A stretch of DNA of 64,000 nucleotides from assembly GCF_048403405.1 (NCBI RefSeq), contig NZ_CP183129.1. One strand, given 5' to 3'. Below, piece by piece: positions 49,353 to 49,515 of this stretch. The translations under genes and the position numbers were made by a program. Within the stretch, counting starts at the first letter, position 1. The number at the start of each line of letters is the position of its first letter. The DNA comes from Escherichia coli (GTDB taxonomy: Bacteria > Pseudomonadota > Gammaproteobacteria > Enterobacterales > Enterobacteriaceae). The notes under the pieces are model-generated. The model saw only the letters and a program-made list of their open reading frames with translations. It made no database searches and was not told where the DNA came from.

Positions 49353-49387
49353 GTTAAGGATTGTGGGATTGCCCCTGGGCATATAAG

Positions 49388-49432
49388 AACGTAGGTCGGA
49401 TAAGCCTCATTCGCGTTGCATCCGACACTACC
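49388..49432. repeat. REP-like element in the nuoL-nuoM spacer
   Basis: CGTAGGTCGGATAAGCCTCATTCGCGTTGCATCCGACA resembles the REP units at 11460-11610. Confidence 0.6.
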
Positions 49433-49515
49433 CCCAGTCCGAAGAGAATTTTCTGTCGTGAGAATTCGTTGAAAATCCGGTCCTGACGGGACTTTTACAA
49501 GGAATAAAGATCGCC

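Follow-up and report, generated by a model that had tools for sequence, protein, structure and literature searches.

The nuoA-N operon lies within a 64,000-nucleotide stretch of Escherichia coli DNA (the window), and its nuoL and nuoM genes are separated by an intercistronic spacer of 163 bp (Table 1). A sequence-only reading of the window had drawn attention to this spacer and to a REP-like palindrome inside it, which it took for a possible internal mRNA processing or stability element. The length is borne out by the ends of the two open reading frames and by an equal gap in K-12 MG1655, and the palindrome is a true Y-type REP hairpin. The accompanying claim, that the rest of the nuoE-nuoN junctions overlap or are shorter than 15 bp, is nearly right but fails at one place: nuoF and nuoG are 46 bp apart if the longest open reading frame is used and 52 bp apart with the K-12 start; the remaining distances in the open reading frame list are −4 (E-F), −4 (G-H), 14 (H-I), 11 (I-J), −4 (J-K), −4 (K-L) and 6 bp (M-N). 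A 363-bp piece spanning the nuoL-nuoM junction is found in 5423 of 5426 complete E. coli genomes, single-copy and always chromosomal, with the genes annotated as nuoL and nuoM.

Table 1. Features of the nuoL-nuoM junction, in window coordinates.
Feature	Position	Strand	Description	Basis
nuoL CDS	47511-49352	+	613 aa; stop TGA at 49350-49352	Open reading frame list; RefSeq annotation of identical matches in E. coli genomes
nuoM CDS	49516-51045	+	509 aa	Open reading frame list; RefSeq annotation of matches
nuoL-nuoM intercistronic spacer	49353-49515	+	163 bp; designated 'allele A' and carried by 4698 of the 5426 complete E. coli genomes	
Outer inverted repeat, left arm GGATTGTGGG	49358-49367	+	Encloses the REP unit; starts 6 nt past the nuoL stop	Seen in folds
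Short hairpin TGCCCCTGGGCA	49370-49381	+	Interpreted as what remains of another REP, in opposite orientation	Alignment with Citrobacter R56
REP (Y-type)	49391-49431	+	Oriented with the GTAGG end leading on the mRNA strand; hairpin imperfect, an A bulging out near the base; apical stem weakened in this strain	
Outer inverted repeat, right arm CCCCCAGTCC	49431-49440	+	Imperfect in the window; strain IMT16316 and other genera have the perfect CCACAATCC	
Unstructured conserved core block ..GAATTTT..GAGAATTCGTTGAAAATC	49441-49478	+	Invariant in the E. coli genomes sampled	
Small hairpin GGTCCTGACGGGACT	49479-49493	+	Just 5' of the nuoM RBS; structure conserved across genera; probably the stump of an ERIC-like palindrome	
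ACA, 19 nt before the nuoM start	49497-49499	+	Directly downstream of the small hairpin	Matches the MazF position of Sauert et al. 2016 (PMC5001579)
Shine-Dalgarno-like AAGGAA of nuoM	49499-49504	+	11 nt before the ATG; invariant in core-type spacers	

Comparative anatomy across the Enterobacterales divides the 163 bp into two parts, a BIME remnant of ~87 bp right after the nuoL stop codon and a core of 76 bp (49440-49515) that adjoins nuoM. The ~87-bp part has an inverted repeat flanking two REPs, of which one is intact and the other internally deleted. Predicted structure sits in the left 93 nt of the spacer (z = −2.86); taken over its full 163 nt, the spacer shows no unusual structure (z = −1.41). 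A permissive Rfam scan of 49000-49900 gave chance microRNA matches only. Scanning 49100-49750 for promoters and terminators returned no promoter-like site and a sole terminator-like site, which lies inside nuoM, so an internal promoter or an intrinsic terminator in the spacer is unsupported. By eye, a 7-codon GTG frame is the sole candidate small open reading frame in the spacer; it was rejected on its improper RBS spacing and its lack of conservation in other genera. The RefSeq annotation of K-12, in the copy consulted, has zero repeat features, even at malE-malF, and hence cannot tell whether the nuoL-nuoM REP is annotated; a search of the available literature found no paper linking nuoL or nuoM to REP or ERIC elements.

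The assignment to the REP family is carried by several features of the element. Its head, GTAGGTCGGATAAG, at 49391, agrees with the REP head motif GTAGGYCKGATAAG with 0 mismatches, and at ≤1 mismatch this motif has 5 matches in the 64-kb window against 0.02 expected. The head pairs with ...CATCCGACACTAC to give the hairpin at −16 kcal/mol (z = −3.55), and 0 of 200 shuffles are as stable. The tail GCATCCGACA is identical to that of the REPs at 11481-11515 and 11572-11606, and head and tail together resemble four REPs at 11453-11585. Like Y-type (PU) REPs of E. coli, the element thus combines the head GTAGGTCGGATAAG and the tail CATCCGACA with a ~35-40-nt imperfect palindrome that has a bulge near its base and folds into a stable stem-loop, the apical stem being partly lost in the window. 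It is extragenic, on the same strand as nuoL and nuoM, between which it lies inside the nuoA-N transcription unit, and four more REPs occur in the same 64-kb window, to which this count is limited. Y-type REP (PU) and BIME elements of E. coli have reportedly been described by Stern and Higgins and by Gilson and Bachellier, and REPs in E. coli operons are textbook material. The element therefore belongs to an already known repeat family, one long known from the most studied bacterial genome.

Elsewhere in the window, at 11453-11606, downstream of a gene that ends near 11420, a BIME cluster contains four REPs in alternating orientation, two of them Z-like (GCCTGATGCGACGCTGGCGCGTCTTATCAGGCCT) and two Y-like (GTAGGTCGAATAAGGCGTTCACGCCGCATCCGACA).

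A BIME comprises at least two alternating REPs with linker motifs, whereas the nuoL-nuoM copy has one intact REP and a 12-nt relic. The full inverted pair is present at the same junction in Citrobacter R56 and Pseudescherichia vulneris, which makes the window copy a BIME remnant rather than a BIME. In Citrobacter R56 the two intact inverted REPs fold at −64 kcal/mol (z = −9.2); E. coli retains the right one, and the left one, TGCCCGGTGGCGCTAACGCTCACCGGGCCTAC, stands where E. coli has the short hairpin TGCCCCTGGGCA. From this alignment, the short hairpin looks like a REP after internal loss of ~20 nt. Apart from the deleted partner and the degraded apical stem, the unit departs from the usual description of REPs in the extra 10-nt inverted repeat that encloses it.

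The wider comparison covers 80 Enterobacterales loci, which were retrieved with NuoM and from each of which the spacer was extracted. Spacer length ranges from 24 to 289 bp, and the content varies as well, from species-specific REPs to ERIC-like palindromes to nothing. Minimal spacers, with little beyond the RBS, occur in Pluralibacter (27 bp), Hafnia (36 bp) and Trabulsiella (41 bp). The 76-bp core alone makes up the spacer in Enterobacter, Citrobacter werkmanii and Atlantibacter; in alignment it corresponds to the right half of the E. coli spacer and reads, in order, ..GAATTTT..GAATTCGTTGAAAATC, small hairpin, AAGGAA, ATG. In E. coli, Citrobacter R56, Klebsiella oxytoca and Superficieibacter an extra block lies directly past the stop codon, bounded by a common inverted repeat (GGATTGTGGG / CCCACAATCC) and filled with each genus's own REPs. 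The comparison with other enterobacterial nuo operons that the sequence-only reading had proposed accordingly finds a hypervariable spacer. Most relatives, and 13% of E. coli, lack its REP half or have unrelated repeats instead. The REP half looks dispensable, and only the 76-bp half adjoining nuoM looks conserved.

Two sequence types adjoin the nuoM start, ..ATATAAGGGACATACKYAGCT-ATG and ..AAGGAATAAAGATCGCC-ATG (loci L009, L018, L020, L002 and L013 compared with the window, L011 and L017). Each type is found in Citrobacter, in Enterobacter and in E. coli. Because the types ignore genus boundaries, this dimorphism suggests either an old polymorphism or repeated exchange at the junction, as judged from these alignments.

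Between genera, the 76-bp core is 0.83 identical, compared with 0.74 at third codon positions of nuoM. The small hairpin within it is retained across genera, with 93% of cells paired and 3 of the 7 pairs changed on both sides; in E. coli it is weak (−6.3 kcal/mol, z about 0). The palindromes found at its place form a size series of 142 > 67 > 53 > 49 > 19-21 nt that have the outer stem in common, and the small hairpin is probably a stump left by internal deletion of an ERIC-like palindrome. This size series suggests independent deletion stumps and so weakens the covariation as proof of selection. The small hairpin was also considered as an intrinsic terminator and rejected: its stem is weak, relatives have no U tract and no Term-seq end is seen at it.

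The long form of this palindrome, an ERIC-like imperfect palindrome of ~125 nt (142-nt form), occupies the junction in many Enterobacteriaceae and Erwiniaceae (L002 at ~482-600; also L013, L028, L034, L035, L053, L054, L068 and others). Its central 62 nt are identical at 60 of 61 positions between an alternative E. coli spacer (allele B, below) and Pantoea ananatis, in comparison with 57% at nuoM third positions, and its centre, GGAGCGTACTTAAGTACGTGAGGATT, can be aligned with GGAGCTTACTAAAGTAAGTGACTGGGG, the centre of the canonical ERIC that Serratia carries at the same junction. ERIC/IRU elements are ~127-bp imperfect palindromes with a conserved central core; such long imperfect palindromes were reportedly described by Hulton in 1991 and by Sharples and Lloyd in 1990. 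The allele B and Salmonella spacers and those of many genera resemble them in carrying the ~125-nt palindrome, which is best described as a diverged subfamily. The window differs in having no such palindrome, only the 15-nt hairpin as a possible stump, and it contains no match to the ERIC2 core with ≤3 mismatches, so that its spacer is not itself an ERIC/IRU element.

Within E. coli, the REP half varies and the core does not. Among six E. coli sequences, the spacer differences fall in the REP unit (apex, flanks and outer arm), and the 76-bp core is invariant apart from one loop base of the small hairpin. The exact 75-nt REP region of the window occurs in only 11 of the 4698 allele A genomes, in comparison with 2287 of 4698 for the K-12 version. 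The REP hairpin folds at −25.7 kcal/mol (z = −5.28) in K-12, against the −16 kcal/mol of the window, and the 93-nt unit at −42.4 kcal/mol against −32.7. This loss of stability is due to three G:C-to-T:A transversions at the apex that break 2 of the 5 apical pairs, and the REP of this strain looks like a decaying, weakened and rare variant. The three apex differences from K-12 (G>T, C>A and G>T, in 49405-49417) are clustered within 10 nt, which might be due to oxidative damage of a hairpin that is exposed, or to one templated event. In most or several E. coli variants (K-12, FORC_043, U13A) the apical stem remains paired through G-U wobbles, a pattern for which structural selection, and not transition bias, could be responsible.

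E. coli is moreover dimorphic at this junction, with the REP allele in ~87% of genomes and an unrelated 230-bp spacer, allele B, in 724-725 of the 5426 complete genomes (~13%), O157:H7 strains among them. Allele B (L002 401-630 and L003 401-630 in E. coli) replaces the whole of the window spacer and has 100% identity with the Salmonella enterica subsp. arizonae spacer (L007 1271-1500). The identical tract extends from ≤9 bp before the nuoL stop to +27..+73 of nuoM, and the coding DNA on either side is only 86-90% identical between the two species. An identical spacer between such diverged flanks points to a short recombination tract across the species border, and allele B looks, from this alignment, like the product of an inter-species tract of roughly 270-300 bp. 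An Rfam scan of the allele B locus returned nothing.

The sequence-only reading had proposed Term-seq or RNA-seq across the junction as a check, and the published K-12 tables allow part of this to be done. Adams et al. 2021 (PMC7815308) provide curated MG1655 Term-seq 3' ends from three growth conditions, among which the nuo 3' ends are at 2391429 (nuoN), 2394829 (nuoL), 2399938 (nuoG), 2403873 (nuoB-nuoC gap) and 2405086. Neither a 3' end nor a Rho region is reported in the spacer (2393042-2393204) among these curated major peaks, given that no coordinate starting with 23930, 23931 or 23932 occurs in the four supplementary files. A modest effect of the REP would be missed in these tables because they are curated rather than raw coverage. 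In Dar & Sorek 2018 (PMC5927463), nuoA-N is among 390 operons tested for differential decay, and beyond that operon list the available supplementary tables, in a text form that may be incomplete, name no nuo gene pairs. The accessible part of the RepRanger supplements does not mention nuo. The published K-12 tables therefore show neither a 3' end at the REP nor a longer half-life upstream of it, as would mark a REP that stabilises mRNA. The only processing reported in the spacer is MazF cleavage, well away from the REP: in Table 1 of Sauert et al. 2016 (PMC5001579), nuoM is MazF-processed at an ACA 19 nt from its start, under mazF overexpression in MC4100. This ACA is not conserved in the Enterobacter-type core TTAAAAAGG.

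A different nuo junction carries a detectable RNA end: the orphan Term-seq end at 2403873 maps to ~38684 of the window, within the nuoB-nuoC gap at 38607-38699 (93-105 bp).

Taken together, we consider it probable that the nuoL-nuoM REP is a neutral or selfish REP/BIME remnant at an insertion-tolerant junction, and that its RNA hairpin affects expression little or not at all. An ancestral core at 49440-49515, carrying the nuoM Shine-Dalgarno sequence and the small hairpin, would let nuoM be translated independently of nuoL, and because nuoM has its own RBS and the two genes are not translationally coupled, the junction would tolerate insertions. The ~87-bp BIME remnant, with its intact Y-type REP, deleted REP and 10-nt inverted repeat, would have landed directly past the nuoL stop, at a place where small palindromic repeats, both species-specific REPs and ERIC-like elements, appear to have been gained, exchanged and lost repeatedly across the Enterobacterales. 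The unusual length of the gap would then result from repeat insertion into a junction without translational coupling. In the mRNA the REP hairpin could slow 3'-5' exonucleases, with a net effect on nuo expression that is presumably small or nil, and in this strain it seems to be decaying. Of this picture, the anatomy, the REP-family membership, the hypervariability between species, the two E. coli alleles and the weakened hairpin are direct observations; neutrality, the order of insertions and deletions and the lack of a regulatory role are inferred from them.

The reading originally proposed, in its fullest form, would make the REP an mRNA decay barrier: after a downstream endonucleolytic cut the hairpin would block PNPase and RNase II, so that nuoA-L outlives nuoM-N and the subunit ratios are tuned. 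It is correct that a REP lies in an unusually long gap of a co-transcribed operon, that its hairpin is real and strong in K-12, alone and as the 93-nt unit, that its pairing is preserved in most E. coli variants, and that REPs elsewhere, at malE-malF and other sites, are proven mRNA stabilisers and documented exonuclease barriers (Newbury 1987; Khemici & Carpousis 2004, both as summarised in PMC12306157). Like the malE-malF REP, the nuoL-nuoM copy lies in a polycistronic gap, downstream of a gene that could be protected. However, at malE-malF the upstream segment accumulates and ends at the REP, whereas the K-12 data sets contain no 3' end in the nuo spacer under any of the three Term-seq conditions and, in the decay-study tables as far as their text form goes, no nuo pair outside the list of analysed operons. 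Complex I subunits are moreover needed 1:1, in equal and not unequal amounts, so that a decay barrier would bring no obvious benefit here. Many genera lack the element, as do 13% of E. coli genomes, and the copy in this strain is weakened. Neither Term-seq, decay tables, comparison nor the state of this copy thus supports a processing or stability element, and we regard a decay barrier as distinctly improbable. A counterpoint to neutrality is that the composite stem begins 6 nt past the nuoL stop, near enough to meet a terminating ribosome, and by the mechanism of Liang, Rudd & Deutscher 2015 such a structure could stall that ribosome and lower NuoL output; such stalling is reported for REPs no more than 15 nt from a stop codon (cited in PMC12306157). 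The REP proper, by comparison, starts 38 nt past the end of the stop codon, outside this 15-nt distance and hence outside the class of stop-codon REPs, and the outer stem that does lie close has only ~10 imperfect pairs in this strain, which makes stalling very unlikely. A role at the level of DNA or transcription, as a gyrase, IHF or Pol I site or as a partial attenuator that lowers read-through into nuoM-N, seems to us just as far-fetched. It draws on the link between BIMEs and transcription attenuation (Espeli 2001, cited in PMC12306157) and on the full two-REP BIME at this junction in relatives, but E. coli retains a single intact REP with no identified linker motif, and the spacer shows neither a terminator- or promoter-like site in the 49100-49750 scan nor a Term-seq 3' end or Rho region.

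Function could instead reside in the conserved 3' core, whose small hairpin or ERIC-like palindrome would set nuoM translation or protect the 5' end of a processed nuoM-N transcript; this would be compatible with a neutral REP. Such a role is suggested by the invariance of the core within E. coli and its excess identity between genera (83% compared with 74% at third positions), by the hairpin pairs changed on both sides, by the near-identity of the ERIC-like centre in allele B and Pantoea, and by the MazF cut directly downstream of the small hairpin (Sauert et al. 2016, PMC5001579). On the other hand, the hairpin is weak in E. coli and is absent from the minimal spacers of 24-41 bp, the size series reads as a plain remainder of a palindrome after internal deletions, and the similarity between copies of a dispersed repeat may reflect the dynamics of the family and not a local function. 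We therefore hold a functional core to be unlikely, if still a candidate worth naming. Somewhat less likely again, in our estimate, is a broader conjecture in which the junction is an ancient landing and exchange site and the functional unit is a conserved structured RNA, the ERIC-like palindrome, which would set nuoM-N translation or stability and of which the window hairpin would be the stump. If so, ~87% of E. coli would carry the REP plus that stump, and ~13% an intact ERIC-like spacer that must have passed between the species by short-tract recombination.

With the REP taken as a probable neutral remnant, the unusual gap is clarified, and for the question posed the outcome is a negative one, with no transcript signature of function in the published tables; it matters little for that question. 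The junction has another use, as a compact natural experiment on the turnover of REP and ERIC-like repeats, with spacers of 24-289 bp, species-specific REPs and two E. coli alleles, one of them identical to that of Salmonella. Its isogenic-like natural variants could also be used to test how a repeat affects the balance of complex I subunits.

The ERIC-like family also occurs away from nuo. In E. coli EcPF5 (L086 1501-1592) a paralogue of ~84% identity lies between the pheM leader/attenuator and pheS; it is present in some E. coli and is the only match to the allele B spacer in 771 E. coli genomes. In an Rfam scan, the canonical ERIC at the junction in Serratia oryzae (L055 1355-1477) matches V_AS5 (Vibrio RNA AS5) below threshold, at 34 bits where the gathering score is 96 (E = 2e-4), and the V_AS5 family may overlap with the ERIC-like repeat.
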